DNA of 64,000 nucleotides from a virus, in the IMG/VR virus record IMGVR_UViG_3300032288_002811, positions 1 to 64,000 of that record; one strand, written 5' to 3'. This document shows positions 23,102 to 50,226 of the stretch, one piece after another. The position numbers and the translations under genes were made by a program. The notes under the pieces were generated by a model. That model searched no databases, had not been told where the DNA came from, and worked only from the letters and a program-made list of their open reading frames with translations. Position 1 is the stretch's first letter. Each line of letters opens with the position of its first letter.

Positions 23102-26100
23102 TTATCCGTATGAGTTTAATTGGCCAAGAATTGTAAATGTACCGGAAACATTAATCAATGTAAATGTTATCACATCAACTCTATTTGCGACACCAACACC
23201 CGTTGTAGCATTTAACCATTTAATAGTAGGTGTTGAACCATTAACTGATATACTATTAACAATATATGGTGTTGCGCCTTGTGCAATTATACAAACAAAT
23301 GTTGATACACGACTTGAAGTATTATCTAAACCAGTAATTGTTGCGGTAATGTTACCACCAACGCCTGTATGATAAAATGTGGCACCTGTAGAGTAATCAT
23401 ATGTTGTTGCACCACTAGAACTTGATTTGGATTGAAAGTTTTCTTGTGATTGTTGGAAAACTGTGTTACTACTAAAGGTTACTAGACCAGATACTGTACC
23501 ACCAGCTTTTGGTAGTGCATTGTTAGCAGTTGTAAATGCAGAGTTGGCATATGAACCTGCACCTGTTGCATTTGTGCCAGCGGTATTAGCAATACCAAAC
23601 GCTGCGTTAGCATATGAACCAGCAGACAATGCATTAGTTGCAGCAGTATTGGCTTGTGTGAAAGCACCATTAGCGTAACCAGCTGCAGCAGTTACATTAT
23701 TAGCAGTTGAGAATGCGGCATTAGCATATGAACCAGCACTTGTTCCTTTGGCATCTGCTGTATTGGCTGCCGTGAAAGCACCGTTGGCATATGTACCAGC
23801 TGATACTGCCTTAGCATCAGCTGTGGAAGCATTAGTAGCTGCGGTATTTGATTGAGAGAAACTGGAATTGGCATATGATGCTGCAGAATTAGCTACGGCA
23901 AATCCAGAGTTGGCATATGAACTTGCTGAAGCAGATGAAGCAGCATTAGCTGCTGTGAATGCACCGTTAGCATACGATGCAGCTGAGTTAGCAACATAAC
24001 TTGGAGTATTGGCCGATAGGAAAGCAGAGTTAGCATATGAACTAGCAGCAGTTACGTTATTGGCTTGAGTGAATGCACCGTTGGCATACAACGCAGCTGA
24101 GTTGGCAACATTACTCGGAGTGTTAGCTGTTAAGAATGCTGAGTTGGCATATGAACTAGCAGCAGTTATGTTATTAGCAATACCAAATGCTGAGTTAGCA
24201 TATACACCAGCAGAATTGGCAGAAATGAAGGCACCATTTGCATATGAACTTGCTGAAGCAGATGACGCTGCATTAGCAGCTGTAAAAGCACCGTTAGCAT
24301 ATACACCAGCAGATGTTGCGGTATTGGCTTGTGTGAAGGCACCGTTAGCATACGATGCAGCTGAGTTGGCAGTATAACTTGGAGTATTAGCCTGTAAGAA
24401 GGCAGAGTTAGCATATGAACTTGCTGAAGCAGATGAAGCTGCATTAGCTGCTGCAAAGGCACCGTTAGCATACGATGCAGCTGAGTTGGCAGTATAACTT
24501 GGAGTATTAGCAGTTAAGAATGCTGAGTTGGCATATGAACTTGCTGAAGCAGATGAAGCTGCATTAGCTGCTGCAAAGGCACCGTTAGCATATGAACCTG
24601 CACCTACTGCTTTAGAGTCTGCCGTATTAGCTGCAATGAAAGCACCATTAGCATATATTGCAGCAGGAACAACACTCTCAAAAGCACTATTTGCAACATT
24701 AAAAGCGGATGTTGCATTCAAAGCAGCAGTATTGGCAACTGTAAATGCTGAATTGGCATATGATCCAGATGTTACTGCCTTAGCATCCGCTGTTGCAGCA
24801 TTAGTTGTTGCGGTATTGGCTTGTGTGAAGGCACCATTCGCATACACACCAGCAGACGTTGCAGTATTAGCTTGAGTGAAGGCACCGTTAGCATATATGG
24901 CTGCCGAGTTAGCAACATAACTTGGAGTATTGGCCGCTAGGAATGCAGAGTTGGCATAAACACCTGCCGAAGATGCACCACTTGCTGAGTTAGCAGCCGC
25001 AAAGGCCGCATTTGCATATGAACTAGAAGAATTAGCAACAGTAAAAGCACCGTTAGCATATACACCTGCCGAAGCTGCACCACTTGCTGAGTTAGCAGCC
25101 GCAAATGCCGAGTTGGCATAAGAACCAGCAGTTACTGCCTTAGCATCGGCCGTGTTAGCACCAGCGAATGCTGAGTTGGCATAAACACCTGCTGGTGTTG
25201 CTGTGTTAGCCTGTAAGAAGGCCGCATTTGCATATGAACCAGCAGAGTTTGCACCAGCATATGCATTGATTAAGTCACTAGACCATCCTGTATCATAGTT
25301 TGTTGAACTGTTCTTAACTAATACTTGACCTGTAGTACCACCAGAAGCAACACCATTACCAGTTGCGCCTGTGGTACCAGTTGCACCAGTTGGTCCACGT
25401 GGACCTTGGCCACCAGTTACTGTTTGTTCAAGTGCAAAATAATCTATCTTGGATGCATGTCCTGTATTACCAGCATTGCTGTGATATAAACGAGCTTGAA
25501 CTGCACCAGCAGAAATATAAGATGTATAACCTAATACTTCAAGTGCATATTGTGCATAACCATTGGCACCAGAATATGAACCAATATTGTCCCATGAAGA
25601 TGTGGAATTGTTATAAATTTGGAAATAAATTATATGACCAGATGCTGGTGTGTAATCAATATTTGCAACGATTCGGTTGAATGATGTTATACCACTAAAT
25701 GTAAATGTAATAATCCACGCAGGACCACTACCATTACCATCAGTTATTTGATATGAATTGCCATCATTCAATGTTTGTGTATCGGTTACAGAACCAGAAA
25801 CATAAACACCATTAGTTAATGACAAACTGTCCGCTGTATATGAAGTTGTTGCTGGAGCTTCAATATCTGCAAAACTCAATACACCCGTACCATCAGTAAT
25901 TAAATATTGACCTGGTGCACCACCATAAATGTGTAAGTTGTCAACTACACCAAGTGCAACATTGGCTCCAACAGAATTCACATTACCAGAAATCTTAAAT
26001 GCATTGTTTGATGTGAAGTATTCTAAGTTGCTTGTGTTACTTAAATAACCATTATTGTTGGCAAAAATTATAGTATTTGCTTTCCAGCCACTTACTTGTG

Positions 26101-27667: not shown

Positions 27668-29320
27668 TTAACTCAATGTTATTGAACCGCTAGTTGTTGT
27701 TGCGAAGCCTGATATGTATATCTTATATGATACTCCAGTCCAATATGAACTTGGTGAAGTAACGTTTTGTGTTACAGGTCCCAAAATGAATTGGCCTGAA
27801 CCGATACTACCATTATTTAGAGCAGTATTATACCAAGAAGTTTTGGTTGAATAACTAGCAGGTACTGCAAACCATACATATTGTCCACTAGCATTCCATG
27901 TGATTGATATTGAACCAGATGAATCGGAAACAACTTTGTTTGTTGTGCCTGCTTCAATTGCAGCTGCGATAGAAGAACCTGTTGGTTGCGATGAGGCCAC
28001 ACCCCAGAAGTATGGATAAATTCCAGTAGTAGATGTACTACCACCAGAGAAAGAATTTTGTGCAGCTTGTGGATTGGTAGTTAACAATACAGCAGCTGTA
28101 TTACTATCAGTACCACCTTTGTTATTTAATTTTGCTACACCAGCACTATAGTTTCCATCACCAGCCCAAGTTGTTGTACCATTAACAATCGTAAATGTAT
28201 CTGTATAAGAAGCTGTGTAAGAATAGTTTTGATTATTTGGATCTTCATAACCAAACTGAGAAGCAACATTAGATGTAGTAGAACTTGTTGGATTTGTACA
28301 TGCAGAAATTTGACTTCCATCACGTGTGAAACGTAATTGTGTAAACGGTCCTGCATCATTCTTAATACCAGTCAACGTCATTGATTGATTGACAGAAACA
28401 CCAATTTCATATGTACCAGAAACACTTGGTGAGAATGAAAGTGTTGGTACTGTGTAAGATGGTCCTAATGTTGGGAATAATATTGCGTCTAATGCTTGCA
28501 CGATTGTATATGTTTTCCATGTTGATGCTGGCGTAGGAGCTGCACCACCAACTTGAATGCTTGTAACTGAATTGGCAATTGATGTATTATATGATAATGC
28601 ATTATTGGCTTGCAAGAATGCTGCATTGGCTGTTTGTCTTGCAAAAGAATCTTGTGCAGTCGCCGCAGCTGAAGATGCTGAATTTGCCGCATCAAAAGCT
28701 AAGTTAGCAAAAGTGCTGGCAGAGTTAGCTGCTTGGAATGCACCATTAGCATAATTGGTCGCAGCGATTACATTATTTGCAATTGCAAAAGCAGCATTGG
28801 CATATGTGCCGGAGTTTATTGCTCTAACATCAGCAGTATTAGCAGCTGTAAATGCACCATTGGCATAACCGGATGCTGAATTTGCCGTGTAACTTGGCGT
28901 GTTGGCTTGTAAGAATGCTGAGTTAGCATAATCACCAGAAGAATTCGCAGCCGTAAATGCTGAATTGGCTTGTGTTCTAACCCATAAATCAGTAGAATTA
29001 TTTGCTTTATCGAATGCAGCATTAGCATACAATGCAGCCGAATTGGCGGTATAACTTGGTGTGTTGGCTTGTAAGAATGCTGAATTGGCATATGAACCAG
29101 CTGCGCTACCTGAAGCAATATTAGCAACTGCAAAAGCAGAATTGGCATATACACCTGCAGAATTTGCTGTTGTGAATGCTGAATTGGATTGTGTTCTGGC
29201 AAAACTATCAAGTATAGTATTTGCTACTACTTTCCAAGCGTTATTGGCCTCATTGTAAATGTATGTTTTTCCATTTACAATTGTTGTTTCGTTATCTGAA
29301 GGTGATGTTGGGAATGCCAT
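27668..29320 (-). CDS. 550 aa fibre linker: FPxSP N-terminal module, about 200 aa of heptads, beta-rich C-terminal domain
   Basis: MAFPTSPSDNETTIVNGKTYIYNEANNAW start; ANSAF repeats; C-terminal YVWFAVP...YKIYIS. Confidence 0.75.
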   Translation of the reverse strand: MAFPTSPSDNETTIVNGKTYIYNEANNAWKVVANTILDSFARTQSNSAFTTANSAGVYANSAFAVANIASGSAAGSYANSAFLQANTPSYTANSAALYANAAFDKANNSTDLWVRTQANSAFTAANSSGDYANSAFLQANTPSYTANSASGYANGAFTAANTADVRAINSGTYANAAFAIANNVIAATNYANGAFQAANSASTFANLAFDAANSASSAAATAQDSFARQTANAAFLQANNALSYNTSIANSVTSIQVGGAAPTPASTWKTYTIVQALDAILFPTLGPSYTVPTLSFSPSVSGTYEIGVSVNQSMTLTGIKNDAGPFTQLRFTRDGSQISACTNPTSSTTSNVASQFGYEDPNNQNYSYTASYTDTFTIVNGTTTWAGDGNYSAGVAKLNNKGGTDSNTAAVLLTTNPQAAQNSFSGGSTSTTGIYPYFWGVASSQPTGSSIAAAIEAGTTNKVVSDSSGSISITWNASGQYVWFAVPASYSTKTSWYNTALNNGSIGSGQFILGPVTQNVTSPSSYWTGVSYKIYISGFATTTSGSITLS

Positions 29321-29352: not shown

Positions 29353-32300
29353 TCAATTATATTTCCAGCCTGAAGATGATATATCGATCCAAACATTTGA
29401 TAATCCATCGTATATATATTCGTACAAAATATCATCATTTGAAGACCACCATTGGTCACCTGCCTTAGCAGAACCTGGTGAATTAATTGAAACAGTATAT
29501 GTTATACCAGATGGTGTGTTGGCTTTTGCAAATGCGGAGTTAGCATATGAACCTGCTGAATTGGCAGCAATGAATGCGGAGTTTGCCTGAGTTCTAACCC
29601 ATGCATCAGATGCATTGTTAGCAGCTGCAAATGCTGAGTTGGCATATACACCAGCAGAGTTGGCAGTAGTAAACGATCCATTAGCATACAACGCAGCCGA
29701 ATTGGCAACATCACTTGGAGTATTAGCAGTTAAGAATGCTGAGTTGGCAGTAGTAAACGATCCATTAGCATACAACGCAGCCGAATTGGCAACATCACTT
29801 GGAGTATTTGCGCTTAAGAAGGCAGAGTTGGCATATACACTAGCAGAATTTGCAGTAGTAAATGCACCATTAGCATATACACCTGCTGATGTTGCACTGT
29901 TTGCAGTTGTAAATGCAGAGTTGGCATATACACCAGCAGAATTTGCAGAACTATAAGCAGAATTGGCATATACACCACTTGAGTTAGCAGCAATAAAGGA
30001 TGCGTTTGCATATGCACCAGCACTTTCGGCCTTATCATTTGCGGTGTTAGCAATACTAAATGCGGAGTTGGCATAATCACCAGCAGTTACTGCCTTTGGT
30101 TCACTATTAGCTTGTGTGAATGCACCATTTGCATATAAAGATGCAGAGTTAGCAACACCAAACGAAGAGTTGGCATAATCACCAGCAGTTACTGCTTTAG
30201 CATCAGCAACATTGGCAGCAGTGAAGGCACCGTTAGCGTATAGTGATGATGAATTAGCAACACCGAATGATGAGTTAGCATAGTTACCGGCTGTGACTGC
30301 TTTGGCATCAGCAACATTAGCTGCTGAGAAAGCACCGTTAGCATATAGTGATGCTGAATTAGCGACTTCAAAACCAGAATTTGCTTGTACAAAAGCACCA
30401 TTTGCATAAAAAGATGCTGAGTTAGCAACTTTTGATACTAAACCCATATCTAATGTATCACCATTAGGTGAAGTAATTGATAATGAGCCTGAACCGGTGT
30501 TACTTAATTTGATACCATCAACATTAATAGAACCTGGACCAACATACAAATCTCGCCAAACATAATCTGCATTACCTAACTGATAAGTATTTGTTACTGT
30601 TGGTAGGATATTTGCTGTCATCAGCAAGTCACCCGTCATTGTGTCACCAGATTTACTTAACTTTGTATTAGCTGTTGCAAATGCACCGTTAGCATATACC
30701 GCTGCTGAGTTGGCAGTATAGCTTGGTGTATTTGCTTGTAAGAAGGCAGCATTTGCGTACAGTGATGCAGAGTTAGCGACACCAAATGAACTATTAGCAT
30801 ATGAACCTGCTGTAACTGCCTTAGCATCAGCAACATTAGCTGCTGAGAAAGCACCGTTGGCATATAAAGATGCGGAGTTAGCGACACCAAATGAACTATT
30901 AGCATATGAACCAGCAGTTACTGCCTTGGCATCTGCTGTAGCAGCATTAATAGTCGCTGTATTTGCTTGGTCATATGCAGAGTTAGCATATACACCAGCA
31001 GTTACTGCTTTAGCATCTGCTGTATTGGCTGCCGTGAATGCACCGTTGGCATATAAAGATGCTGAATTGGCAACACCAAATGAACTATTAGCATACGAAC
31101 CTGCTGTAACTGCTTTAGAATCTGCCGTAGCAGCATTAGTGGTTGCTGTGTTTGCTTGGCCATATGCTGAATTGGCATAGACACCAGCTGTGACTGCTTT
31201 TGAATCTGCCGTAGCAGCATTAGTGGTTGCTGTGTTTGCTTGGCTATATGCAGAGTTAGCATATGAACCAGATGTTACTGCCTTGGCATCAGCGGTGTTG
31301 GAAGATATGAATGCTGAATTGGCATACGAAGCAGCAGAGGTTGCTCTATCAAGTGAAGAATTTGCGATAGAAAAAGCAGCATTCGCATAACTTCCAGCAT
31401 TTACTGCTTTAATATCAGCAGTATTAGCAGTTGCAAATGCACCATTGGCATAATCAGATGCTGAATTGGCCGTGTAACTTGGTGTATTTGCTTGTAAGAA
31501 AGCCGCATTGGCATAACTTCCAGCATTTACTGCATTGGTATCAGCAGTATTAGCAGTTGCAAATGCAGAGTTAGCATAAGAACCAGAAGTTACTGCCTTA
31601 GCATCAGCTGTTGCAGCATTAGTTGTTGCTGTATTCGCCTGAGTGAAACCTGAGTTGGCATAACTAGCAGCACTTGTTGATTTAGAATCTGCGGTATTGG
31701 CTGCACCAAAGGCTGCATTAGCATACGTGCCAGAATTTACTGCCTTGGTGTCTGCTGTATTGGCTGCATCAAATGCTGAGTTGGCATATTGAGAAGCACC
31801 AGCTGCATTGTTTGCTGCTGTGTTTGCTTGCGTGTATGCATTTCCAATATAAGAAGCTACATTGACCTGGCCAAGTGTAATATGGTCTGCTTCCAAATCA
31901 CCTTTAAATCTCCATGCTTGAACGTTTGCAAGATGAAAACTAGCATCAAGAAGATTAATTAGATTATTTGATTGAATTTCAGGTGTATAACCTTGGAAGA
32001 AAATCCATTCCTTTTCATTTGGATCTCTGAATATACCTGTGTGAGCACCAGAACTTGTATCAGTATCATAATAATGTCCAATAATACCAATGTCAACTGC
32101 ATCTGATGCATAATTACCATTTGCTAAGTATATTAAAGAATCACCTAATGTAATACTTTGTGTGCTAATTGTTGTTGTATTACCAAGAACTGTTAAATTA
32201 CCACTAATTGTTGCATCACCAGTAACACTTAAATTACCTGTAATTGTACCACCAGATGCAGATAATGCTGTATTGGCTGCATCAAAAGCTGCATTGGCAT

Positions 32301-33900
32301 ACGAACTTGCAGATAATGCATTGAGTACACCTGTGTTTGCTTTGGTATATGCAGAATTGGCATAACCGCCAGATGTTACTGCCTTAGCATCAGCTGTTGC
32401 AGCATTTGTAGTTGCAGTATTCGCTTGTGTAAAACCTGAGTTAGCATATACACCAGCAGATGTTGCTTTATCATCAGCAGTATTAGCTGCAATGAATGCT
32501 GTGTTAGCGTATATACCAGACACAACTGCTTTAGCATCTGCTGTTGCAGCATCAGTTGTTGCTGTGTTTGCTTGGTCGTATGCAGAATTGGCGTATGATC
32601 CGGAACTGAATGAACTATTAGCTGCACCGAATGCAGAGTTGGCGTATGAACCAGCAGTTACTGCTTTAGCATCTGCTGTAGCAGCATTAGTAGTTGCTGT
32701 ATTAGCCTTACTAAAACTAGAATTGGCATATGCAGCACCAGCAGATGCTTTGTTATCAGCCGTATTAGCTGCACTAAATGCAGAGTTGGCATATACACCT
32801 GATGTTACTGCTTTAGCATCTGCGGTATTAGCTGCATCAAATGCTGAGTTAGCATACGCACCGGAATTTATTGCTTTAGCATCTGCGGTATTAGCTGCAT
32901 CAAATGCTGAGTTAGCATACGCACCGGAATTTATTGCCTTGGTGTCTGCCGTTGCAGCATTAGTTGTTGCTGTGTTTGCTTGGTCGTATGCAGAATTGGC
33001 GTATGAACCTGATGATACTCCAACAGTAGATGCCGAGTTGGCCGCATCAAAAGCACCATTAGCATATACACCAGAACTTGTTGCATAATCTGTGGCAGTA
33101 TTTGCTTGGCCATATGCAGAGTTGGCATATGTACCAGAATTTACTGCCTTGGTGTCTGCTGTATTAGCTTTGCTAAAACCTGAATTGGCATATGAACCGG
33201 CTGATACTGCCTTGGTGTCTGCCGTTGCAGCATTAGTTGTTGCTGTATTCGCCTGAGTGAAACCTGAGTTAGCATATACACCAGCAGATGTTGCTTTGGT
33301 GTCGGCAGTCGCAGCATTTGTAGTTGCGGTATTTGCTTGTCCATATGCTGAATTGGCATATGAACCGGATGTTACTGCTTTGGCATCAGCCGTAGCAGCA
33401 TTTGTAGTTGCGGTATTTGCTTGTTCATATGCAGAATTGGCATATGATCCTGATGTTGTTCCACCAGCAGTTGCGGTATTAGCTAAATCAAATGCACTAT
33501 TAGCGTATGAACCGGCAGAAGTTGCGTAATTTACTCCAGCATTGGCGGTAGTAAATGAGGAGTTGGCATAATCACCAGCAGAATTGGCTGTAATAAAAGC
33601 ACTATTGGCATATAAGGCCGCAGAATTGGCTACACCTCTTGCCACACCATCGGTAGCAGAACCGGTAGACATGGCATTCGCAAACGAAAATGCCGCATTG
33701 GCATATATGAATGCACCGTTTGCATAGGTGGCTGCACTTGAAGTGTCTCTAGCAGAAGCAACTGGAAAACCACCTGGAGTCGATCCATCATGTACAACAA
33801 GAATTTTCTTGGTAGTATCAACCGTAACTTCAGCCACAGCACCCGTAAAGGTGCTTGTTGATGTGGTGTTACCTCTTCTTAATTGAAATTGTGTAGACAT
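29353..33900 (-). CDS. 1515 aa Ala/Asn-heptad fibre protein with an Mtd_N/hyaluronidase-N-like N-terminal domain
   Basis: MSTQFQLRRGNT...FTGAVAEVTVDTTK..LVVHDGSTPGGFP; knob at about 31860-32260; C-terminal GDQWW...LYEYIYDG..NVWIDIS. Confidence 0.82.
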   Translation of the reverse strand: MSTQFQLRRGNTTSTSTFTGAVAEVTVDTTKKILVVHDGSTPGGFPVASARDTSSAATYANGAFIYANAAFSFANAMSTGSATDGVARGVANSAALYANSAFITANSAGDYANSSFTTANAGVNYATSAGSYANSAFDLANTATAGGTTSGSYANSAYEQANTATTNAATADAKAVTSGSYANSAYGQANTATTNAATADTKATSAGVYANSGFTQANTATTNAATADTKAVSAGSYANSGFSKANTADTKAVNSGTYANSAYGQANTATDYATSSGVYANGAFDAANSASTVGVSSGSYANSAYDQANTATTNAATADTKAINSGAYANSAFDAANTADAKAINSGAYANSAFDAANTADAKAVTSGVYANSAFSAANTADNKASAGAAYANSSFSKANTATTNAATADAKAVTAGSYANSAFGAANSSFSSGSYANSAYDQANTATTDAATADAKAVVSGIYANTAFIAANTADDKATSAGVYANSGFTQANTATTNAATADAKAVTSGGYANSAYTKANTGVLNALSASSYANAAFDAANTALSASGGTITGNLSVTGDATISGNLTVLGNTTTISTQSITLGDSLIYLANGNYASDAVDIGIIGHYYDTDTSSGAHTGIFRDPNEKEWIFFQGYTPEIQSNNLINLLDASFHLANVQAWRFKGDLEADHITLGQVNVASYIGNAYTQANTAANNAAGASQYANSAFDAANTADTKAVNSGTYANAAFGAANTADSKSTSAASYANSGFTQANTATTNAATADAKAVTSGSYANSAFATANTADTNAVNAGSYANAAFLQANTPSYTANSASDYANGAFATANTADIKAVNAGSYANAAFSIANSSLDRATSAASYANSAFISSNTADAKAVTSGSYANSAYSQANTATTNAATADSKAVTAGVYANSAYGQANTATTNAATADSKAVTAGSYANSSFGVANSASLYANGAFTAANTADAKAVTAGVYANSAYDQANTATINAATADAKAVTAGSYANSSFGVANSASLYANGAFSAANVADAKAVTAGSYANSSFGVANSASLYANAAFLQANTPSYTANSAAVYANGAFATANTKLSKSGDTMTGDLLMTANILPTVTNTYQLGNADYVWRDLYVGPGSINVDGIKLSNTGSGSLSITSPNGDTLDMGLVSKVANSASFYANGAFVQANSGFEVANSASLYANGAFSAANVADAKAVTAGNYANSSFGVANSSSLYANGAFTAANVADAKAVTAGDYANSSFGVANSASLYANGAFTQANSEPKAVTAGDYANSAFSIANTANDKAESAGAYANASFIAANSSGVYANSAYSSANSAGVYANSAFTTANSATSAGVYANGAFTTANSASVYANSAFLSANTPSDVANSAALYANGSFTTANSAFLTANTPSDVANSAALYANGSFTTANSAGVYANSAFAAANNASDAWVRTQANSAFIAANSAGSYANSAFAKANTPSGITYTVSINSPGSAKAGDQWWSSNDDILYEYIYDGLSNVWIDISSSGWKYN
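32809..32937. repeat. Perfect 63 bp tandem duplication (3 heptads)
   Basis: tgctttagcatctgcggtattagctgcatcaaatgctgagttagcatacgcaccggaatttat starts at 32809 and again at 32872. Confidence 0.95.
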
Positions 33901-36900: not shown

Positions 36901-39900
36901 AAAGGCCGTATTTTGTGTAGTACCATCTGCAAACTGGATTAAATTAGGGAAAGTTGTTTTACCAGTAGTATCAAATAGAGTTATATAACCATTTGTTGTT
37001 ATTGTAGTATTTGCTAATGTACCAACAACATTGTCTGTGATAACATTACCAGTAACAGTAAGGCTACCTGTAATTGTACCACCAGTATTTGCATTAATGG
37101 AATTGTTGGCACGAACATATGCCGAGTTGGCATACACACCAGAAGAATTGGCTGCCGTAAAGGCACCGTTAGCATATACTGCTGCTGAATTGGCAATGTA
37201 ACTAGGAGTATTAGCCTGTAAGAAGGCTGCATTTGCATATGTACCAGCAGTTACTGCCTTCGTTTCACTATTTGCCACAGCAAACGCAGCGTTAGCATAT
37301 GAACCTGCACTAGTTGCTTTAGTATCTGCTGTATTAGCTGATGTGTATGCTGAGTTGGCATAGACACCAGATGAGTTAGCTGCAACAAATGCAGAGTTTG
37401 CTTGAGTTCTAACCCATGGGTCAGTTGCGTTATTGGCTGCTAAGAATGCTGCATTAGCATATACACCTGATGCATTAGCTGAAGTGTATGCTGAGTTGGC
37501 ATAGACACTAGCACTTGTTGCCTTATCGTCTGCCGTGTTAGCACCAGCAAACGCAGAGTTGGCATACACACCAGAAGAATTGGCCGCATCAAATGCACCG
37601 TTGGCATACAGAGCAGCAGATGATGCACCAGCTGCCGAATTTGCAGCTGCATAAGCTGCATTAGCATATGCACCAGCTGTTACTGCCTTGGCATCAGCTG
37701 TGTTAGCTGTCGTAAACGAAGCATTAGCATAAATTGCAGCTGAGTTGGCAACATCACTTGGAGTATTTGCGCTTAAGAAGGCAGAGTTGGCATAAGATCC
37801 TGCTGATGTTGCCTTAGTGTCCGCTGTGTTAGCACCAGCAAATGCAGAGTTGGCATATGAACCTGAAGTTACTGCCTTAGCATCTGCGGTATTAGATGCA
37901 GTGTATGCTGAGTTGGCATATACACCAGAAGAATTTGCGGCCGTAAATGCACCGTTAGCATACACACTAACCGATGCAACGGTATTAGCAACAACAAACG
38001 ATGCATTAGCATATGAACCTGCTGATGTTGCTTTGGCATCTGCTGTGTTTGCAGCTGCATAAGAATTGTTTACATACGGAAGTAAATCAATTCCTTTAAC
38101 TAAAATTGTTGTTGAATGTAAATTAGCATTAAGTGTTGCAATCTTAAATGATGCATCATTAATATCAATATTATTATTGGCAGTAATTTCTGGTGTGTAA
38201 CCCTCAAACAATTGCCATTCTTTGGTACCAGCATCACGAATTAAACCAGCATGAGCATTTGTGCCATCATTATAATGTGATGCAAAACCAATATCTAATA
38301 TATCAGCCGTATAGTTGCCTGTACCAAGAATAATCAATGAATCGTTTGCAACAATAACTTGTGTGCTAATTGTTGTTGTATTACCAAGAATATTTAAATT
38401 ACCTGTTACACTTAGGTCACCTGTAATTGAACCACCAGATTTTGGTAACGCATTGTTTGCAGTTGTAAATGCTGAGTTAGCATATGAACTTGCAGAATTT
38501 GCAGTATAACTAGGAGTGTTTGCCTGTAAGAACGCACCGTTAGCATATGCACCAGCAGTTACTGCCTTAGCATCAGCTGTTGCAGCATTTGTAGTTGCTG
38601 TGTTTGCTTGGTCGTATGCTGAGTTGGCATACACACCAGAAGAATTAGCCGCAACAAATGCTGAATTGGCTTGTGTTCTAACCCATGGGTCAGTTGCATT
38701 ATTGGCAGCAGCGAATGCTGAGTTGGCATACACACCAGAAGAATTGGCTGCAACGAATGCCGAGTTGGCTTGTGTTCTAACCCATGGATCAGTTGCATTA
38801 TTGGCTGCAGCGAAAGCACCATTAGCATAAATTGCAGATGAGTTGGCAACATCACTTGGAGTATTTGCCTGTAAGAAGGCCGCATTTGCATATGTACCAA
38901 CAGTTATTGTAGTATTGTATGCAATATTTGATGCACCAAATGCTGAATTGGCATAAGAACCAGCAGTTACTGCCTTATCATCTGCTGTGTTAGCACCAGC
39001 AAATGCCGAGTTGGCATATACACCAGAAGAATTGGCTGCTGTAAATGCGGAGTTTGCCTGAGTTCTTACCCAAGGGTCTGTAGCGTTATTGGCTGCCAAG
39101 AAGGCAGAGTTGGCATAAGATCCTGCTGATGTTGCCTTAGTGTCAGCAGTATTGGCAGCAGTAAAGGCACCGTTAGCATATACAGAACCAGAATTTGCTG
39201 TGTAACTTGGAGTGTTTGCCTGTAAGAAGGCCGCATTTGCTTGTATGAATGCACCGTTAGCGTATGTTGATGCAGAGTTAGCAACATCACTTGGAGTATT
39301 TGCTTGTACAAACGCAGCATTAGCATATAACGCAGCCGAATTGGCAACATCACTTGGAGTATTTGCGCTTAAGAAGGCAGAGTTGGCATACGAACTTACT
39401 GATGCAATAGTATTAGCTACAACAAATGATGCATTGGCTTGTATAAAAGAAGCATTGGCATAAGTTGATGCTGATGACGCAATATCACTTGCTATATTTG
39501 CGGTTGTGAATGATGAATTGGCATATGATCCAGCAGACAACGCATTGGTTGCGGATGTATTGGCTTGATTGAAACCAGAATTAGCATAGACACCAGAAGA
39601 ATTGGCTGCAACGAAAGCACCGTTAGCATATAATGCAGCTGAGTTGGCAACATTGCTTGGTGTATTGGCTTGCAAGAAGGCCGCATTAGCATATGAACCA
39701 GCTGTTACTGCCTTAGCATCTGCCGTGTTAGCACCAGCGAATGCAGAGTTGGCATATAAACCAGTTGTTGTCGTTTTCGCATCTGTTGCATTTGCCGAAG
39801 CATATGCTGAGTTGGCATACAAAGAAGCACCAGATGCATTATTAGTTGCTGTGTTTGCTTGGTCATAAGCAGCATTAGCATATACACCGGATGTTACTGC

Positions 39901-42900
39901 TTTAGCATCTGCCGTGTTAGCACCAGCGAATGAAGAGTTGGCATAGACACCAGCAGAATTGGCTACAACGAATGCCGAGTTGGCATATGTACCAGATGTT
40001 ACTGCCTTATCATCTGCTGTGTTAGCACCAGCAAATGCAGAGTTGGCATACACACCAGAAGAATTGGCAGAATCAAATGCTGAGTTGGCATAAACAGATG
40101 CCGAGTTGGCAGTATAACTTGGTGTGTTTGCTTGTAAGAATGCACCGTTAGCATACACAGATGCAGAGTTAGCAACAATGAATGATGCATTAGCATATAC
40201 ACCTGATGTTACTGCCTTAGTATCTGCGGTGTTAGCTGCACCAAATGCAGAGTTGGCATACACACCAGAAGAATTGGCAGAATCAAATGCTGAGTTGGCA
40301 TATGAACCTGAAGTTACTGCCTTAGTATCTGCGGTGTTAGCTGCACCAAATGCAGAGTTGGCATACACACCAGAAGAATTGGCAGAATCAAATGCACCGT
40401 TGGCGTATGTGCCAGAATTTACTGCCTTAGTATCTGCTGTGTTAGCTGCGGTGAATGCTCCGTTAGCGTAACTAGATGCTGAATTGGCCACATCACTTGG
40501 AGTATTTGCCTGTAAGAATGCAGCGTTAGCATATGTGCCAACAGTTACTGCTGTATTGTAAGCTATATTAGATGCATCAAATGCTGAGTTAGCATAAGAA
40601 CCAGTTACATTCGCTTTACCATATGCAGAGTTGGCATATACACTAGAAGAATTGGCTGTTGTGAATGCACTGTTGGCATAATTGGAACTACCACTTGCAT
40701 TGTTTGTTGCTGTATTTGCTTGTGTATATGCTGAAGTGGTGTATGCATATAAATCTACACCATTACTTGTAATAGAATAACCAGATACGTTTGCAATCAA
40801 TGTTGCTACGTTTGCAGCGTCTGCTGAACCTGCAGCTAATACATTACCGGAAGGGTCTTGTGATAGACCTTGGAACAATAGGAAATTATTTGAAGCTGCT
40901 TGTCTAACTAAACCATGATATGTTGGACCAGCAGAACCTGTTGTCTTTGAAACTCCGTAGAAACCAATATCAAAAGAATCACTTACGGTATTATTTCCAG
41001 CAAGTTTGATTAATGAATCTGATGTTATAATTGTTTCAGCATTAACAGTAGTTGTTGTACCATTAATAACTAAACTACCAGTAATAGTTACATCACCAAC
41101 TACAGTACCACCAGATTTTGGTAACGCATTGTTTGCGGTTGTAAATGCAGAGTTAGCATATGAACCAGCAGTTACTGCTTTAGCATCCGCTGTATTGGCA
41201 GCAGTAAAGGCACCGTTGGCATATATTGCGGCTGAAGCTGCACCAGCTGCCGAGTTTGCAGCAGCAAACGCCGCATTAGCATATTCACCAGAAGAATTGG
41301 CTGCAACAAATGCACCGTTGGCATATAATGCTGCCGAGTTGGCAACATTACTTGGTGTATTGGCTTGCAAGAAAGCCGCATTGGCATATACAGATGCTGA
41401 ATTGGCACTAATAAATCCTGAGTTGGCGTATGAACTTGCTGATGCAACAGTATTTGCTACAATGAAAGCACCGTTAGCATAGACTGCGGCTGAATTTGCT
41501 ACATAACTTGGTGTGTTGGCTTGTAAGAAAGCACCATTCGCATATGATGATGCAGAATTAGCAATACCAAATGAACTATTAGCATACGACCCAGCAGTTA
41601 CTGCTTTAGCATCTGCTATGTTAGAAGAAGTGAAAGCACCGTTAGCATATACAGATGCTGAATTAGCAACATTAAATCCAGAGTTAGCATATGAACCTGA
41701 TGTAACTGCTTTAACATCTGCCGTATTGGCTGCACCGAATGCAGAGTTGGCATATGCACTAGAAGAATTGGCTGCATCAAATCCAGAATTAGCATACGCA
41801 CCAGAATTTATTGCCTTAGTGTCAGCAGTATTGGCAGCAGTAAAGGCACCGTTAGCATACACAGCTGCCGAGTTTGCTACATAACTTGGTGTGTTTGCTT
41901 GTAAGAAGGCACCGTTAGCATATGCTGATGCCGAGTTTGCTACATAATCTGGTGTATTGGCTTTTAAGAAAGCTGCGTTTGCTTGTATGAAAGCACCATT
42001 TGCATATGTTGCAGCTGAAGTTGCTACACCAGGAACAAAAGCTGTATTTTGTGTGGTGCCATCGGCAAATTGTATCAGGTTAGGGAAAGTTGTTTTACCT
42101 GTTACATCAAATAGAGTTATATAACCATTTGTAACGAGTGTTGTATTAGCAACTGTACCTGCAATATTTCCTGTGATAACATTACCTGCAACATACAAAG
42201 TACTATTTGATGTAATGTATGAGAAATCAGCAACACTAGTTAAATAACCAGTTGAGTTTGCATATAGTACAGAACCTGGTACATAACCGGATGGTGTTGC
42301 AGCTGCGTTTGCTTTATCGAATGCAGAGTTGGCGTAAATGAATGCTGAATTAGCATACGCTGCAGCTGAATTAGCCGCACCAAAAGAACCATTAGCATAC
42401 GATGCAGCAGAGTTGGCAGTATAACTTGGTGTGTTTGCTTGCAAGAAGGCAGCGTTTGCTTGTATGGATGCACCGTTAGCATATACTGAGGCTGAGTTTG
42501 CTCTGTAACTTGGAGTGTTTGCCTGTAAGAACGCAGCGTTTGCTTTATCATATGCACTATTAGCATAGACTGACGCTGAGTTGGCAGTGTAACTAGGAGT
42601 GTTCGCTTGCAAGAAGGCAGCGTTAGCATATGTGCCAGAATTTACTGCCTTAGTATCTGCGGTGTTGGCTGCATCAAATGCACCATTAGCATATACAGAA
42701 GCAGAATTTGCCGTATAGCTAGGTGTATTTGCCTGTAAGAAGGCAGCGTTAGCGTATGATGCTGTTACATTGGCTGCACCAAATCCAGAATTAGCATATG
42801 CTGCGGCTGATGCAGCTGCATCTCTTGCTATACCATCTGTTGCAGAACCTGTTGATAATGTATTTGCAAAAGAAAACGCAGCGTTAGCGTATGAACCTGA

Positions 42901-44789: not shown

Positions 44790-44797
44790 TATTTATC
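44790..44797 (-). promoter_or_regulatory. Late promoter variant GATAAATA upstream of the 3610 aa gene
   Basis: NATAAATA in the 51 nt intergenic gap. Confidence 0.65.
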
Positions 44798-44814
44798 TTA
44801 TTTGGTGGCAACTA

Positions 44815-45372
44815 TTAGAAAGTTCCACCATTAATTACATTTAAACCAATTTCACCAATATATCTGTAACCAGTAATAAAAACTACTTTACCAGTTAATG
44901 CTGATGGTATTGTACCACCAATAAAATTTAAAACTCCAGATTGATAATCAAAAAACCATTCACCTACACCCGCAATACCAGAATCAAACATCTGTGTGCC
45001 TGTTGCAACAGGATTCGATGCACCAGAACTGTCTGCATACACAGAGACAAAGTATGATGAACCAAATTCTGGTGTGATCCAATCAGTCAGGTTAGTCTTC
45101 CATGTTGGATACACTCCACCAACAGCCGTAGATGTACCATCCGCAACACATTGTATTCTATCTGTGCCTTGATATCCTTGTACAATACCAACTACAGATG
45201 ATGCTGTGGCAGGTATAAAACTGGCTTGAGTCCAAATTTTATCACCACGATTAATTGTTGGACTGGCAATAGTTTCATTACTTGCACTCTTATTTGTTGA
45301 TGTGTCTGTTTTAGTAACACCAAAAAGTTTTTTATAAAGTAAATCAACTTTTGAGGAATCTGATACTGCCAT
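44815..45372 (-). CDS. 185 aa fibre adaptor protein
   Basis: MAVSDSSKVDLLYKKLFGVTKTD...WFFDYQSGVLNF...GYRYIG, ending NVINGGTF; stop-start coupled to the upstream gene. Confidence 0.75.
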   Translation of the reverse strand: MAVSDSSKVDLLYKKLFGVTKTDTSTNKSASNETIASPTINRGDKIWTQASFIPATASSVVGIVQGYQGTDRIQCVADGTSTAVGGVYPTWKTNLTDWITPEFGSSYFVSVYADSSGASNPVATGTQMFDSGIAGVGEWFFDYQSGVLNFIGGTIPSALTGKVVFITGYRYIGEIGLNVINGGTF

Positions 45373-47772
45373 TTAGTTACTCGCTGTCTGCAAAGATAAT
45401 GCGGTCACAGTTTGACCACTTGTTAATTTAATTCTAACATAAATTTCATTGGTCAATCCTGGATCCGAACTAGATACAGTACCAAATGTACAAGTTTTTC
45501 TGTGGTTAGTTACTGCTGAATTTAATGTGACTACACCACCCAATGCACAACCACTTGATGGTACACCTGCACCACTATATGCAGTTGCCATACTGACCCA
45601 ACCATTTGTTGCACCTGCAGATGTATCTATGGCACTACCTGGTACTGCAACCCAAAGGCCAGCAATCGTACCTGTAAATTGAATATCAAATTTAGATACA
45701 GATGTTCTTATAAATCTAAATGTAAAGTATTGTGCAGAACTTCTTCCTGAACTTAGGTCTGGACCTGCAGGTAAATAACCTGTAGAATAGTTTGTCTGGT
45801 CATGTTTTAATATCGCAGCAACCATTGTTGCGTCATATACTTGTAATGTTCCATTTTGGCTATCGAACAATGTTGCATTTGGGAATTGTACAGGATTGTC
45901 TGTAGAACCAGGATTAATAATTCTTGATGCCGTGCCGGAACCTGTACCAACAGTAGAACCAAAAGTAACAGCAGATTCTTCCATGGAATTGCCTGTTCCT
46001 GTTTTATAAAGAACTGTATTGGCCAATGCTGATGTGAATGCTTGTGTACCTGTTGCATAACTATTATCTACTGTAACACTTGGACCAGTTGATGATGAAC
46101 CAAAACCAGATATAATTGTAGATGTTGTATTTACAGTAACGGAGCCAGAGGACACATATAAATTTTGTACCAAAGGAAATGTTATACCAACAGTTGGATA
46201 TGTGTTACTAGAAGGTGCAGCAAATGCACCACCAGCAGTACCGGTAAAAAATGTATTGCTTGTTGGGAACATATCACCACTCAATTTAGATACGTTAACA
46301 CCCAATCTAAATGTAGATGAACTATTATAGTGTGGTACTGTACTTGAATATGTCAATGATGGAGATAGAGGTACAATACTTGCTGAAGTAAATGTTGGTG
46401 TACCTGGAGATGATGCATCATAATACCAAGATGCAGTAGAAGTTGTACCTGCACCAGAATGTGTAAGATAAACTTCATTCCATCCAGATGATACACTACC
46501 TGAACCTTGAACTGTAAATATTCTCCAAAAGCCTGCAGCACCACCAGAAACAGTAGAGTAATCTTTACTTTGTGAAATAACTAAATCACTATAACTACCG
46601 TTAGCACTTGATGTTGTGAAACTTACACTACCTGATATCGTACTATTTTTATAGAGTCTGAGTGTACCAGAATCGCCTGGTCCAAAGTTACTAAAAAGAT
46701 TTGTTGAGTATGAAGCCGTTCTGAGAACTGTACTAACAGTTGCACCACCAGAAACATTTCTGGCACTTGAAGTTCTGTCCGTTTGTATAAAATTTGTCAT
46801 ACGATATGTTGACAAACTATTAATACTTAAAGATGTTCCAGTAGGGAATGCTGGCGGCGATGCAGGTACTAGTTTACCTAACACATTGTTTAATAGTGCT
46901 ATACCATCTGTAATTTTTGTTGTTGTTGTAAGTGTCACCGCATTACTTACCAATTGACCAACTGTGTTTGAACCTAAATCAGCAGTAGCACCAGTAATTG
47001 TTGCTGAAACTCCACTAGCTAAATCATAAGCAGTATTTGCAACATCAAAAGCCGAATTGGCATAAACACTACCAGAATTAGCAGTATCAAATGCACCGTT
47101 AGCATAAATGTCTGCTGAGTTGGCAGTATAACTTGGAGTATTTGCTTGTAGAAAAGCATAAGCAGCTGATGTAAATGCAGAATTGGCTACACCAAATGCT
47201 GAGTTGGCATAACTAGATGCAGAGTTTGCTACATAATCTGGTGTATTGGCTTTTAAGAATGCAGCGTTTGCTTGTATAAATGCACCATTAGCATACAACG
47301 CAGCAGAGTTTGCTGTATAAATTGGTGTGTTGGCTTTTAAGAAAGCTGCATTAGCATAACTTGCAGCAGAATTGGATGTACTGAATGCTGTGTTGGCATA
47401 CAGACTGGCACCAGCCGCATTGTTTGTTGCTGTGTTTGCTTGGTCATAAGCAGAATTAGCATACACGCCAGCAGAATTGGCTGCAATAAAAGAAGAATTT
47501 GCTTGTAAATAAGATGCATTTGAATATGCATATGGTGCAGCAGCAGTAAACTGTTTTGTTCCATCAGCCAAGAATGTAACATTTGAGAATTCTCCATTGG
47601 CTGCAGCCTTGGATGCAACTAGACTTACTGCATTATTGGTGTCTAAGTAAAATAATTTACCATCAACAATATTAATAGCAACTTCACCGGCAACAAGCGA
47701 GCTCGCCAGAGGTAATGTACCTCCGGTATTAGAATAGAATAGTTGAATTGCTGTTGAATTGGCTTGTGCCAT
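45373..47772 (-). CDS. 799 aa fibre protein: gp37-N-like domain, heptads, large beta-rich C-terminal region
   Basis: AIQLFYS..GTLPLASSLVAGEVAINIVDGKLF resembles T4 gp37 IQFKRS...PAASVLAEGELAINLKD..IF; C-terminal QYFTFRF...LWVAVPGS.ID. Confidence 0.78.
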   Translation of the reverse strand: MAQANSTAIQLFYSNTGGTLPLASSLVAGEVAINIVDGKLFYLDTNNAVSLVASKAAANGEFSNVTFLADGTKQFTAAAPYAYSNASYLQANSSFIAANSAGVYANSAYDQANTATNNAAGASLYANTAFSTSNSAASYANAAFLKANTPIYTANSAALYANGAFIQANAAFLKANTPDYVANSASSYANSAFGVANSAFTSAAYAFLQANTPSYTANSADIYANGAFDTANSGSVYANSAFDVANTAYDLASGVSATITGATADLGSNTVGQLVSNAVTLTTTTKITDGIALLNNVLGKLVPASPPAFPTGTSLSINSLSTYRMTNFIQTDRTSSARNVSGGATVSTVLRTASYSTNLFSNFGPGDSGTLRLYKNSTISGSVSFTTSSANGSYSDLVISQSKDYSTVSGGAAGFWRIFTVQGSGSVSSGWNEVYLTHSGAGTTSTASWYYDASSPGTPTFTSASIVPLSPSLTYSSTVPHYNSSSTFRLGVNVSKLSGDMFPTSNTFFTGTAGGAFAAPSSNTYPTVGITFPLVQNLYVSSGSVTVNTTSTIISGFGSSSTGPSVTVDNSYATGTQAFTSALANTVLYKTGTGNSMEESAVTFGSTVGTGSGTASRIINPGSTDNPVQFPNATLFDSQNGTLQVYDATMVAAILKHDQTNYSTGYLPAGPDLSSGRSSAQYFTFRFIRTSVSKFDIQFTGTIAGLWVAVPGSAIDTSAGATNGWVSMATAYSGAGVPSSGCALGGVVTLNSAVTNHRKTCTFGTVSSSDPGLTNEIYVRIKLTSGQTVTALSLQTASN

Positions 47773-47805
47773 TGTTACCTTACTCTTATATAATTGTTAT
47801 TTTAT

Positions 47806-47813
47806 TATTTAGA
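47806..47813 (-). promoter_or_regulatory. Late promoter variant TCTAAATA
   Basis: Overlaps the stop of the 805 aa gene, about 35 nt before ATG 47772. Confidence 0.5.
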
Positions 47814-50226
47814 ACGTGCCACCAGAAATCAGATTCGCTCGAAGTGTTCCACCCAATATTACATTACCCGATACACCAATACCACCAACTATAACCATTG
47901 TACCTGTATCTGTTGCCGTTGAATTAACATTTGAATTTGCAATTAATTGTCCAAAATTACCTACACTTGCACCACCTGAACCAGATACACTAAATGTTGC
48001 ACCCGTATCACTTGTTAATGATATTGCACCACCTTCAGCAGAAATCTCTGCACCACCCAAATCAATAGTGTTACCAGCAAGAAACAGTTTACGCCAACGT
48101 CTTGTTGGACTGCCTAAATCGTAACTGATATTTGCAGAAGGTAAGATATGACCGGCATATGTATTAGCCTGTATAATTACCTGACCTTGTAATGTTAAAG
48201 CACCACTAACTGTACCACCAGTTTTTGGTAAAGCAGCATCAGCAAGATTATAAGCAGAATTGGCTTGAAGAAATGATGAGTTGGCGTATGATGCAGATGA
48301 GTTTGCTGTATAACTTGGTGTGTTAGCTTGAATGAAAGCTGCATTGGCTGTACTGAATGAAGCATTTGCTTGTCTGAATGCACCATTAGCATAATTTGAT
48401 GCCGAATTGGCCGAAACAAAAGCCCCGTTGGCATATGTTCCACCAGAAACTCCAGTGGATGAGGCTGCATTGGCTGCGTCAAATGCTGTGTTGGCTTGTG
48501 TTCGAACCCATGTATCTACAGCACTATTAGCAGCTGCAAAGGCCGCATTGGCGTATATGCCAGAAGAATTGGCTGCAACAAAAGCACCGTTAGCATATAA
48601 TGCTGCTGAGTTGGCAACATTACTTGGTGTATTGGCTTGTAGGAAAGCCGCATTTGCTTGTACAAAAGCACCGTTAGCATAAACACTAGCTGCTGTAGTA
48701 TTATTTGCTGCAATGAATGCCGCATTTGCTTGTACAAAAGCACCATTCGCATACAACGCAGCTGAGTTAGCAACATTACTTGGTGTGTTAGCAGTTAAGA
48801 AAGCACCGTTGGCGTATACACCAGCGGATGCAGCTGTATTAGCAACAACAAACGCAGCATTAGCATATGAACTTACTGAATTTGATGTAGTAAATGCACC
48901 ATTAGCATATAATGCAGCCGAGTTAGCAACATTACTTGGAGTATTTGCTTGTAGGAAAGCGGCATTCGCTTGTACGAAAGCACCGTTAGCATATAATGCA
49001 GCTGAGTTGGCAACATTGCTTGGTGTATTGGCTTGCAAGAAGGCCGCATTAGCATATACACCAGATGAATTAGCTGCATCAAATGCTGAATTTGAATTTA
49101 AGAAAGCCGCATTAGCATAAACACCAGAAGAATTAGCAGCAACAAATGCAGAATTTGCTTTTATAAAAGCAAGATTGGCTGTATTAAAAGAGGATGTTAT
49201 GTGTGAATATGCATTTATTCCATTTATAGTTGCATATTCAGCAATTAAATTACCTTTAAATACATTTGAATAAACGTTGGCATATGAAAATGATGGATGA
49301 GCAAGGTCAATTAAGTTATTACCTTCAACTTCAGGTGTATATCCTTGAAAGAAAATCCATTCTTTTCTGTTTGGATCTCTAAAAATACCTGTGTGAGCAT
49401 TAGATCCAGAATTATAATTACCAATAATACCAATGTCAACTGCATCACTGCTGTAATTATTACTACCCAAATATATTAAAGTATCGGTTACTGTAACGCT
49501 TTGTGTACTAATTGTTGTACTATTACCAAAAACAATCAAGTTACCAGAAACTGTAAGGTCATTTGTTACATTTAATGAACCTGAAACTGTACCACCAGTA
49601 GCTAATGATGTAGTATTTGCTTTATCAAACGCACCTTGTGCAAGGTTTGTTGCAGATGTAATATTGGTATTTTGTGTTGTATTAACACCTTGTAACAATA
49701 TAATATTATTTGATGCGGTATTGGCTGTGTCAAACGCAGCGTTTGCTTGTGCAAAAGCAAAAACAGCCAAACCTGCACCGTTGGCAGTATTGTATGCAGC
49801 TTGTGCTAATGCTGATGCTGAATTGGCCGCACCAAATGCAGAGTTGGCATATATGCCTACTGTTACAGAATTATTTGCATTCGTATTTGCTTGTAAGAAA
49901 GCTGCATTAGCTTTAGTAAATGCACCATTTGCTTGGTTGAAAGCAGCATTTGCGCCTGCCCATGCAAGACTTAAATTACCTGTAGAACCCGCTGAATTAG
50001 CAGTATTGAATGCAGCCTGTGCTAATGTAGTAGCAGTATTGGCCTGTGTATATGCATTTATACCAGTTGCCACCGCTGTGGCACCACCAATGGTAATTAC
50101 ATTACCATATTGATTACCAATATAAAATGTATTTGCTAAAAATGAGTAAGCTAATGCGCCATCTTGTAAAAAAGTCGGTGCAGTATTAGCATACGACCTT
50201 AATATCTGTACACTTGTATTTGACAT
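47809..50226 (-). CDS. 805 aa Ala/Asn-heptad fibre protein with knob domain
   Basis: VQILRS...PTFLQDGALAYS...FYIG N-terminus; knob at about 49210-49600; LPSANISYDLGSPTRRWRKLF motif; ends NLISGGTF. Confidence 0.8.
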   Translation of the reverse strand: MSNTSVQILRSYANTAPTFLQDGALAYSFLANTFYIGNQYGNVITIGGATAVATGINAYTQANTATTLAQAAFNTANSAGSTGNLSLAWAGANAAFNQANGAFTKANAAFLQANTNANNSVTVGIYANSAFGAANSASALAQAAYNTANGAGLAVFAFAQANAAFDTANTASNNIILLQGVNTTQNTNITSATNLAQGAFDKANTTSLATGGTVSGSLNVTNDLTVSGNLIVFGNSTTISTQSVTVTDTLIYLGSNNYSSDAVDIGIIGNYNSGSNAHTGIFRDPNRKEWIFFQGYTPEVEGNNLIDLAHPSFSYANVYSNVFKGNLIAEYATINGINAYSHITSSFNTANLAFIKANSAFVAANSSGVYANAAFLNSNSAFDAANSSGVYANAAFLQANTPSNVANSAALYANGAFVQANAAFLQANTPSNVANSAALYANGAFTTSNSVSSYANAAFVVANTAASAGVYANGAFLTANTPSNVANSAALYANGAFVQANAAFIAANNTTAASVYANGAFVQANAAFLQANTPSNVANSAALYANGAFVAANSSGIYANAAFAAANSAVDTWVRTQANTAFDAANAASSTGVSGGTYANGAFVSANSASNYANGAFRQANASFSTANAAFIQANTPSYTANSSASYANSSFLQANSAYNLADAALPKTGGTVSGALTLQGQVIIQANTYAGHILPSANISYDLGSPTRRWRKLFLAGNTIDLGGAEISAEGGAISLTSDTGATFSVSGSGGASVGNFGQLIANSNVNSTATDTGTMVIVGGIGVSGNVILGGTLRANLISGGTF

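Follow-up and report, generated by a model that had tools for sequence, protein, structure and literature searches.

Some 700 nearly uncharged Ala-Asn heptads in six fibre proteins of a putative T4-like virus: candidate alanine-zipper shafts

In the first 64 kb (64,000 nucleotides; hereafter the window) of the 77,390-bp contig of the uncultured virus IMGVR_UViG_3300032288_002811 (IMG/VR), we found a fibre block of seven consecutive open reading frames (ORFs) on the minus strand (23102-50226). Six of these ORFs encode proteins of 1520, 550, 1515, 3610, 799 and 805 amino acids (aa), named here A, B, C, D, F and G, which are mainly made of x-A-N-[STGA]-[ASP]-x-x heptads and together hold about 700 nearly uncharged units of the form x-A-N-x-A-x-x. 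The interpretation that we favour, with modest confidence, is that these heptads build the shaft of homotrimeric fibres, in the form of an alanine-zipper coiled coil tightened by aromatic clamps between positions g and e' of neighbouring chains.

The periodicity of the repeat was ascertained by comparison with shuffled sequences. The six proteins contain 690 AN dipeptides, versus 236 ± 12 when the same residues are shuffled (500 shuffles), and 473 of the 689 gaps between successive AN pairs measure seven residues, versus 5.7 ± 2.4 in 500 shuffles. Fourier analysis gave peaks at 7.0, 3.5 and 2.33 residues, and no period-2 signal. These values bear out a preliminary description of the same DNA, which had noticed a period-7 A-N pattern repeated several hundred times and poor in Leu, Ile and charged residues; in the 3610-aa protein D, for instance, Ala makes up 25% of the residues and Asn 12.5%, with 3.2% Leu, 2.7% Ile and 6.8% Asp, Glu, Lys and Arg taken together. 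The same description had placed a Tyr just before the Ala and a Phe or Tyr four residues after it, and the motif Y-A-N-x-x-[FY] does occur 265 times in the six proteins, nearly each YAN having its F or Y four residues past the Ala. Its 14-residue super-period and its invariant Asn, however, had to be given up. The commonest distance from YAN to YAN in protein D is 21 residues (62 times), ahead of 14 (36 times) and 28 (11 times); out-of-phase YAN units of 17, 19, 20 and 33 residues also occur, and the units follow one another in irregular order. As to the Asn position, it is occupied by Asn in 85% of the 777 in-phase heptads, by Val in 7% and by Thr in 3%, these substitutes lying mostly within the third heptad (K-A-V-T-A-G-S), and it is never charged.

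Over these 777 heptads, position 1 is Tyr in 35%, and Gln, Lys and Ala in 12% each; position 2 is Ala in 97%; position 3 is the Asn position; position 4 is Ser (40%), Thr (29%), Gly (12%) or Ala (12%); position 5 is Ala (73%), Ser (13%), Pro (7%) or Gly (4%); position 6 is Phe (36%), Gly (17%), Ser (15%) or Asp (10%); and position 7 is variable, being mostly Thr, Ser, Ala, Asp or Gly. The phase is broken at about 8% of the heptad junctions, by +3, +5 or +6 residues. At the DNA level, the fibre genes (23000-50300) carry dozens of tandem duplications of 60-95% identity, with periods of 42, 51, 63, 84, 99, 105, 114, 120, 189, 210 and 315 nucleotides. Because all these periods are multiples of 3, and most of them multiples of 21, the duplications suggest that the length of the shafts is still changing. 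Since such local duplications build much of the array, the heptads are not independent samples.

The following lines of evidence point to an alanine-zipper coiled coil. First, with position 2 taken as a and position 5 as d, the apolar fraction at a/d reaches 0.86, the highest of the seven possible registers, with the lowest entropy, and the value of 0.86 is found again in 4644 heptads of 68 non-redundant relatives; this apolar seam is almost wholly made of Ala, the bulky apolar residues contributing just 0.01-0.03. Second, aromatic residues at positions 1 and 6 are tightly coupled (two-by-two counts of 267/6/55/449 in the window, and an odds ratio of about 20 in the 4644 heptads of the related loci). 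Since the i,i+5 distance is the classical interchain g-e' spacing and makes no intrahelical contact, we read Y-A-N-x-A-F as g-a-b-c-d-e, that is as two Ala layers clamped by the Tyr of one chain and the Phe of the next, in keeping with the e/g placement of the aromatics in the preliminary description. Third, charged or large residues are nearly excluded from positions b and c (0-1.5%), in contrast to e, f and g, which are charged in 10-13% of cases; this speaks for a steric constraint on b and c and against the continuous, freely exposed Asn stripe that had been supposed at first. Fourth, AlphaFold2 (AF2) monomer models are helical across the repeats, with a predicted local distance difference test score (pLDDT) of 50-57 in one model and an average of 40 in another, which covers the region of a Trp-containing motif (10-sequence alignment); the mean helix-propensity penalty is 0.42-0.48 in the repeats versus 0.55-0.64 in the globular knobs and tips. 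Fifth, PF11839 (Alanine_zipper) is the sole Pfam family that matches the repeat. It scores 17.2 bits on residues 690-1089 of protein C (E 0.0064, five stretches), under its gathering threshold of 23.1 bits, and 10.4 bits on residues 2900-3140 of protein D, while four relatives pass that threshold (P0105, 65.9 bits; P0050, 44.6; P0039, 39.1; P0015, 25.1). In the Atlas, too, Alanine_zipper ranks first among the feature leads on the repeat, all of which score below 0.9. Sixth, a fibre context is indicated by the Mtd_N domain of protein C, by the adjoining fibre with a Peptidase_S74 domain, by matches to PHROG tail-fibre families and by the location of the block between baseplate genes and gp13/gp14, and it is from this context (Mtd_N and the S74 neighbour) that we infer the trimeric state.

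We therefore word the proposed architecture as follows. Each chain would form long, possibly segmented α-helices, which would associate into a parallel, in-register, three-stranded coiled coil with an alanine zipper as its core (a, position 2; d, position 5, where Ala, Ser, Gly or Pro would be accommodated). Such an all-Ala core would be thin and intrinsically weak, and four factors may hold the rod together: (i) the aromatic clamps, the Tyr at g of one chain packing on the Phe or Tyr at e of the next in every Y-A-N-x-A-F unit; (ii) Asn (b) and Ser/Thr (c), forming a rib along the rim of the interface, where the small radius of an alanine zipper would admit only small uncharged residues; (iii) the sheer number of heptads; and (iv) the interspersed knobs, presumably trimeric, which would set the register together with the N- and C-terminal domains. 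The six paralogues, which end in different tips, are probably host-recognition fibres or whiskers that serve as alternatives to one another or are joined in series.

Several points weigh against this architecture, so that the thin Ala-core coiled coil of the preliminary description keeps its place as the best-supported reading rather than as a proven one. The low pLDDT values of the monomer models also fit disorder, or a fold that a monomer model does not reveal. The poor helix formers Asn, Ser, Thr and Gly amount to about 40% of the residues; and because Pro occupies the putative d position in 7% of the heptads (ANTPS) and some 8% of the junctions are out of phase, the helix would have to be broken or put under strain at numerous points. 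Such phase breaks could be taken up by a coiled coil that is segmented like that of fibritin. (An apparent preference for phase shifts of +3 or +4, reminiscent of stammers and stutters, proved to be an artefact of extra AN pairs inside heptads, which disappeared with in-phase anchors in the relatives; it is therefore not used as evidence.) The window's own repeats stay below the Pfam threshold for Alanine_zipper, the coupling statistics overstate independence because many heptads are related by recent duplication, and protein D would measure about 0.4 µm if fully extended, far beyond the known T4-type fibres. Finally, the Ala-14 mutant of the lipoprotein Lpp, which sets a precedent for the proposed fold in that its crystals contain a trimeric alanine zipper of 5.1 Å supercoil radius (PMC4137666; PMC12284834), is unstable in solution (PMC4137666), and a pure Ala core would therefore need the additional stabilisation postulated above.

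This Lpp mutant (1JCD), together with Lpp-56 (1EQ7) and the OprI-type lipoproteins of PF11839, is nevertheless the closest known likeness of the phage repeat: Ala stands at both a and d, the mutant is a parallel trimer, and the PF11839 profile aligns to the repeat. The differences lie in size and surface. Lpp and the OprI-type proteins are periplasmic, highly charged and 50-80 residues long, whereas the phage repeat extends to about 3000 residues per chain, is less than 7% charged, and carries Asn where the OprI-type proteins are acidic, aromatics at g/e and inserted knobs. A literature search for a paper on the structure of OprI found none. A second likeness is with the coiled coils of aculeate silks (honeybee, hornet) and the Alacoils, which share an Ala-rich core, a small radius and a role in structural fibres (PMC12284834), but the silk helices are insect helices of about 210 residues assembled as heterotetramers, with neither an Asn stripe nor aromatic g/e pairs. 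A third is with T4 fibritin (wac), a trimeric fibre in which heptad segments are interrupted by short loops and terminal domains set the register, and whose gene, like the fibre block, is found directly upstream of gp13/gp14. The gene position alone agrees, since there is no sequence similarity and no Fibritin_C/foldon match; furthermore, the core is made of Ala rather than Leu, Ile or Val, and the six paralogues are up to seven times longer and carry inserted knobs.

Among the other folds that deserve consideration, a structure other than a coiled coil survives best, although we regard it as unlikely. The repeat could be a β-rich trimeric fibre, in the manner of triple β-spirals or β-helices, with a tight turn in Y-[A-N-x-A]-F, or else a solenoid of short helices, or a disordered, uncharged 'hair'. 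An invariant 10-residue core (Y-A-N-x-A-F-x-x-A-N) separated by spacers of 4, 7, 9, 10, 11 or 18 residues is indeed typical of β fibre repeats, and Asn-Gly and Asn-Ser favour turns; moreover, confidence in the AF2 models is low on the repeats, and no solved structure matches the repeat by sequence or profile when proteins G and C and the alignment A2 are compared with the PDB. The β versions are opposed by the spacing of Ala at i, i+3 and i+4 in the absence of any period-2 signal, and all versions by the Pfam Alanine_zipper matches and by the AF2 models, which predict helices and neither strands nor coil. A β-solenoid, or any stacked solenoid of fixed coils, is ruled out by the irregular succession of 14-, 21-, 28-, 17-, 19-, 20- and 33-residue units, which a helical rod tolerates and a fixed coil does not. 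As to disorder, it is hard to reconcile with the strict conservation of positions over hundreds of divergent clusters. Exposed and flexible Asn-Gly and Asn-Ser pairs also deamidate quickly, which speaks against disorder as well. Structural searches with the long helices of an AF2 model (Foldseek and VIA, PDB) returned generic coiled coils only (Z about 7), and the sole PDB matches of the relative P0105, the YSPTSPS heptads of the RNA polymerase II CTD, are an artefact of the shared period.

Still within the coiled coils, a polar core appears improbable. Such a trimer would have the Asn (position 3) at a, the residue of position 6, aromatic or variable, at d, and ion-binding Asn layers, following the precedents of the trimeric autotransporter stalks (N at d) and of the tail needle of P22 (N at a and Q at d), and polar-core layers are documented in natural proteins (PMC13580157). 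The Asn is the second most conserved residue of the heptad and, as at core positions, its replacements are mainly Val or Thr and never charged; it is followed by Ser or Thr in 69% of the heptads, which recalls the NT of the [IV]xxNTxx motif, and the phage repeat thus resembles the N-at-d stalks and the NxxQD motif of P22 gp26 in having Asn at a fixed heptad position, followed by Thr or Ser. In those proteins, however, the Asn takes turns with bulky hydrophobic residues of the core, whereas in the phage repeat the residues three and four away from it are mostly not hydrophobic, and the Ala seam fits a core better. In the polar-core register (positions 3 and 6) the apolar fraction at a/d is just 0.31-0.34, with roughly half of the heptads having Gly, Ser, Asp, Thr or Arg at d; the Ala conserved at 97% and 73% would move to the surface or close to it (g and c), and Tyr to the most exposed position, f. 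With N at d instead, the i-3 residue (position 7) is apolar in 46% of the heptads of the window and 30% of those of the relatives, at odds with [IV]xxNTxx. The register with Asn in the core, which the preliminary description had kept as an alternative, thus loses to the Ala seam.

We then considered the proposal, also made in that description, that the Asn stripe is glycosylated. In its full form, which we judge very improbable, the stripe would be the substrate of the glycosyltransferase and methyltransferase cassette directly downstream of the fibre block, and the glycans would keep an otherwise uncharged rod soluble. The cassette comprises a GT25 domain (54 bits) and a GT9-like GT-B/methyltransferase fusion of 585 aa, whose residues 1-359 match GT9-like GT-B clusters by Atlas structure (TM 0.81-0.87; many of them TPR-fused bacterial proteins) and whose C-terminal part is a methyltransferase, the only part that Pfam detects. 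The closest relative, the locus L064, keeps both methyltransferase-fusion proteins beside its 2679-aa heptad fibre. The N-glycosylation sites of chlorovirus PBCV-1 Vp54, which the proposal had invoked correctly, are NTGT, NTET, NTAT and NIPG (PMC9614988; PMC5408694), and ANTAT occurs 25 times in the window. The context of the Asn, on the other hand, seldom agrees with them: [AG]-N-T-x-T accounts for 28 of the 690 Asn (4%), ANTPS for 53, and the canonical N-x-S/T (x not Pro) for 77 (11%), while the dominant ANSA, ANGA, ANAA and ANTA fit no known sequon. Among 76 related fibre loci of IMG/VR, in which flanks of up to 10 kb were covered, none encodes a GT25, 24-27 of these loci including neck genes, and the methyltransferase fusions are found in L064 alone, so that the cassette is absent from 75 of the 76. 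Furthermore, its many Ser, Thr and Asn residues make the rod polar without glycans, and the exclusion of large residues at b and c points to packing rather than exposure. The GT25 and GT9-like families are not known to comprise Asn-transferases. General glycosylation of the stripe is weakly supported, and it is unlikely that the repeat needs a glycan coat in general, a lineage-specific modification of the virion being possible. The narrower proposal that the fibres of this virus are covalently glycosylated by its own GT25/GT-B-methyltransferase cassette, on stripe Asn in non-canonical contexts or on the adjacent Ser/Thr, also seems to us doubtful in the extreme, if marginally less so than the full form. 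Were glycosylation true, it would represent a virus-encoded modification of the host-recognition fibres of a T4-like phage, coating a natural, uncharged alanine-zipper rod of 0.1-0.4 µm.

The AN heptads are combined with various other domains. Protein A successively comprises an N-terminal domain, a knob (residues ~85-215), about 1000 residues of AN heptads, a collagen-like GxT stretch with a central β domain, and a C-terminal tip domain (residues ~1388-1520). Protein B has about 230 residues of AN heptads followed by a C-terminal domain of about 300 residues. Protein C starts with an Mtd_N-type N-terminus (PF18454, 41 bits; the Mtd chains 1yu0-1yu4 match this N-terminus only) and has three heptad blocks separated by a knob (residues 549-690) and a second insert (residues ~1085-1157). 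In protein D, seven AN-heptad blocks totalling about 3000 residues alternate with six globular inserts. Protein F has about 190 residues of heptads, then a 530-residue C-terminal domain, and protein G an N-terminal domain, heptads, a knob (residues 211-345), heptads again and a C-terminal β domain ending in GGTF. The C-terminal domains differ among the six heptad proteins. No Pfam family matches proteins A, B, D, F and G above cutoff, Fibritin_C included. The region of protein F spanning residues 263-799 (45373-46983, minus strand) is 32-35% identical, over 94-99% of its length, to proteins of the phiCbK-like jumbo siphophages of Caulobacter and Brevundimonas, which are annotated as hypothetical or 'tail' proteins; this C-terminal domain also matches a few phages of Agrobacterium, Sinorhizobium and Salicola, and the 53 records matched in all include no cyanophage isolate. 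Three side observations concern these proteins: the short collagen-like stretch of protein A (G-x-T/G-P-x; residues ~760-800, window ~25260-25390, minus strand), GGQGPRGPTGATGTTGATGNG, sits between the central β domain and the second heptad block; G-G-T-F directly precedes the stop codon in both the 185-aa protein (44815-45372) and protein G; and an N-terminal domain of about 50 residues, of I-Q-L type, is common to proteins D, F and G.

Features of the fibre block and of the neighbouring cassette, with their positions in the window
Feature	Position	Strand	Remarks
GT25 glycosyltransferase, 238 aa	17319-18035	-	PF01755, 54 bits
GT9-like GT-B + methyltransferase fusion, 585 aa	18041-19798	-	Atlas structure, TM 0.81-0.87
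Methyltransferase-domain protein, 468 aa	within 17319..21217	-	
GT25 + GT-B/methyltransferase fusion + methyltransferase-domain protein	17319..21217	-	PF08241; between fibre block and gp13
RCC1-repeat protein, 618 aa	21242..23098	-	last gene of fibre block
Fibre protein A, 1520 aa	23102..27664	-	105 AN, 60 at spacing 7
Fibre protein B, 550 aa	27668..29320	-	26 AN, 17 at spacing 7
Fibre protein C, 1515 aa	29353..33900	-	126 AN, 80 at spacing 7
Example knob, protein C residues 545-690	31831..32268	-	begins A-L-x-x-S-G-G-T-[IV]-x-G; motif, AF2
Giant fibre protein D, 3610 aa	33931..44763	-	349 AN, 262 at spacing 7
Phase-breaking insert N-A-T-D-P-W-V-R-T-Q-A-N, protein D residues 1826-1972	38848..39288	-	
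185-aa protein	44815..45372	-	without heptads; ends GGTF; phrog_9417, 1.2e-33
Fibre protein F, 799 aa	45373..47772	-	phrog_8578, 1.4e-87
Fibre protein G, 805 aa	47809..50226	-	

Globular inserts interrupt the heptad blocks, and the commonest of them starts with A-L-P-x-S-G-G-T-[IV]-x-G right after the last heptad. This knob of about 140 residues is modelled by AF2 as β strands with a pLDDT of 78-89. It has no Pfam family, and its AF2 model found no convincing fold match in the PDB (Foldseek, E <= 0.001; VIA, Z >= 8); likewise, a tblastn search with the knob and with protein G found no match in 50,697 isolate phage records. The knob is common in uncultured phages, the predicted structures of BFVD that match it being fibre proteins of such phages. 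A shorter insert, of 12 residues, breaks the phase of the heptads in proteins B, C, D and G, where it occurs in nine copies, each with an AN-AN gap of 12 (one of them at residues 1891-1904 of protein D). Its consensus is N-[AS]-[TS]-D-x-W-V-R-T-Q-A-N, in which D, W, R and Q never vary, and the phase shift that it causes is always +5; the relatives have variants such as DTWVRNQAN and DSWARAQAN. This DPW insert could serve as a hinge, a β-layer or a binding site.

The repeat is very common in uncultured marine and freshwater phages of the T4-like type, as a class of fibres left unannotated. A search with protein G returned more than 2,556 metagenomic proteins, and among the best 120 matches about half share the AN heptad with the [YF]-A-N-x-x-[FY] clamp, others having variants such as F-A-N-G-A-F or pure Q-A-N-G-A-Y-x heptads. 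A query made of the repeat only matched 682 representative clusters (E <= 0.001) among 1.84 billion proteins, and 60 of the 76 IMG/VR loci encode heptad proteins, of up to 3658 aa; the window, with its 473 in-phase pairs in one block, is the richest case among the loci examined. Searches of the literature for an AN heptad in phage fibres found none, and in the window the repeat unit stays under the cutoff of every Pfam family, PF11839 passing in the four relatives mentioned above. If the proposed fold is correct, this would be by far the longest natural alanine-zipper coiled coil, almost uncharged, in which aromatic g/e' pairs and ribs of Asn, Ser and Thr replace a bulky core and salt bridges, a solution useful for the theory and design of coiled coils: whereas designed cores made of Ala alone are not stable in solution, here the pattern is maintained over thousands of residues. 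In addition, a Pfam-type model of the heptad and the knob would annotate thousands of 'hypothetical proteins' as fibre shafts and help to delimit their receptor-binding tips.

Turning to the genome, the minus strand carries all the long ORFs of the window. In the order of transcription, a baseplate wedge subunit, a 2097-aa DUF4815 protein and a 926-aa fibre with a Peptidase_S74 chaperone domain precede the seven ORFs of the fibre block (50226-23102), which are followed by an RCC1-repeat protein, by two methyltransferase-domain proteins and the GT25 glycosyltransferase, then by gp13-like and gp14-like neck proteins and gp15, by two adhesins (cadherin-like and LamG), and finally by the terminase, sheath and portal. 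Because the portal and terminase genes are 70-75% identical to those of Synechococcus and Prochlorococcus myophages (the sole matches of a megablast search with the first 20 kb), the window is identified, on the grounds of its sequence, as the structural module of an uncultured T4-like virus of cyanophage type. The fibre block lies between the baseplate genes and gp13/gp14. In T4, this slot, just upstream of gene 13, is that of gene 12 and of wac, which encodes the trimeric coiled-coil fibritin. The region between gp15 and the terminase genes (10221-14636, minus strand) encodes a 1228-aa protein with nine cadherin-like domains and a Gly-rich domain, and the 242-aa LamG protein. Lastly, two ORFs of 198 aa (32492-33088, plus strand) and 158 aa (41006-41482, plus strand) run antisense to the repeat genes and are probably by-products of their biased repeat sequence.

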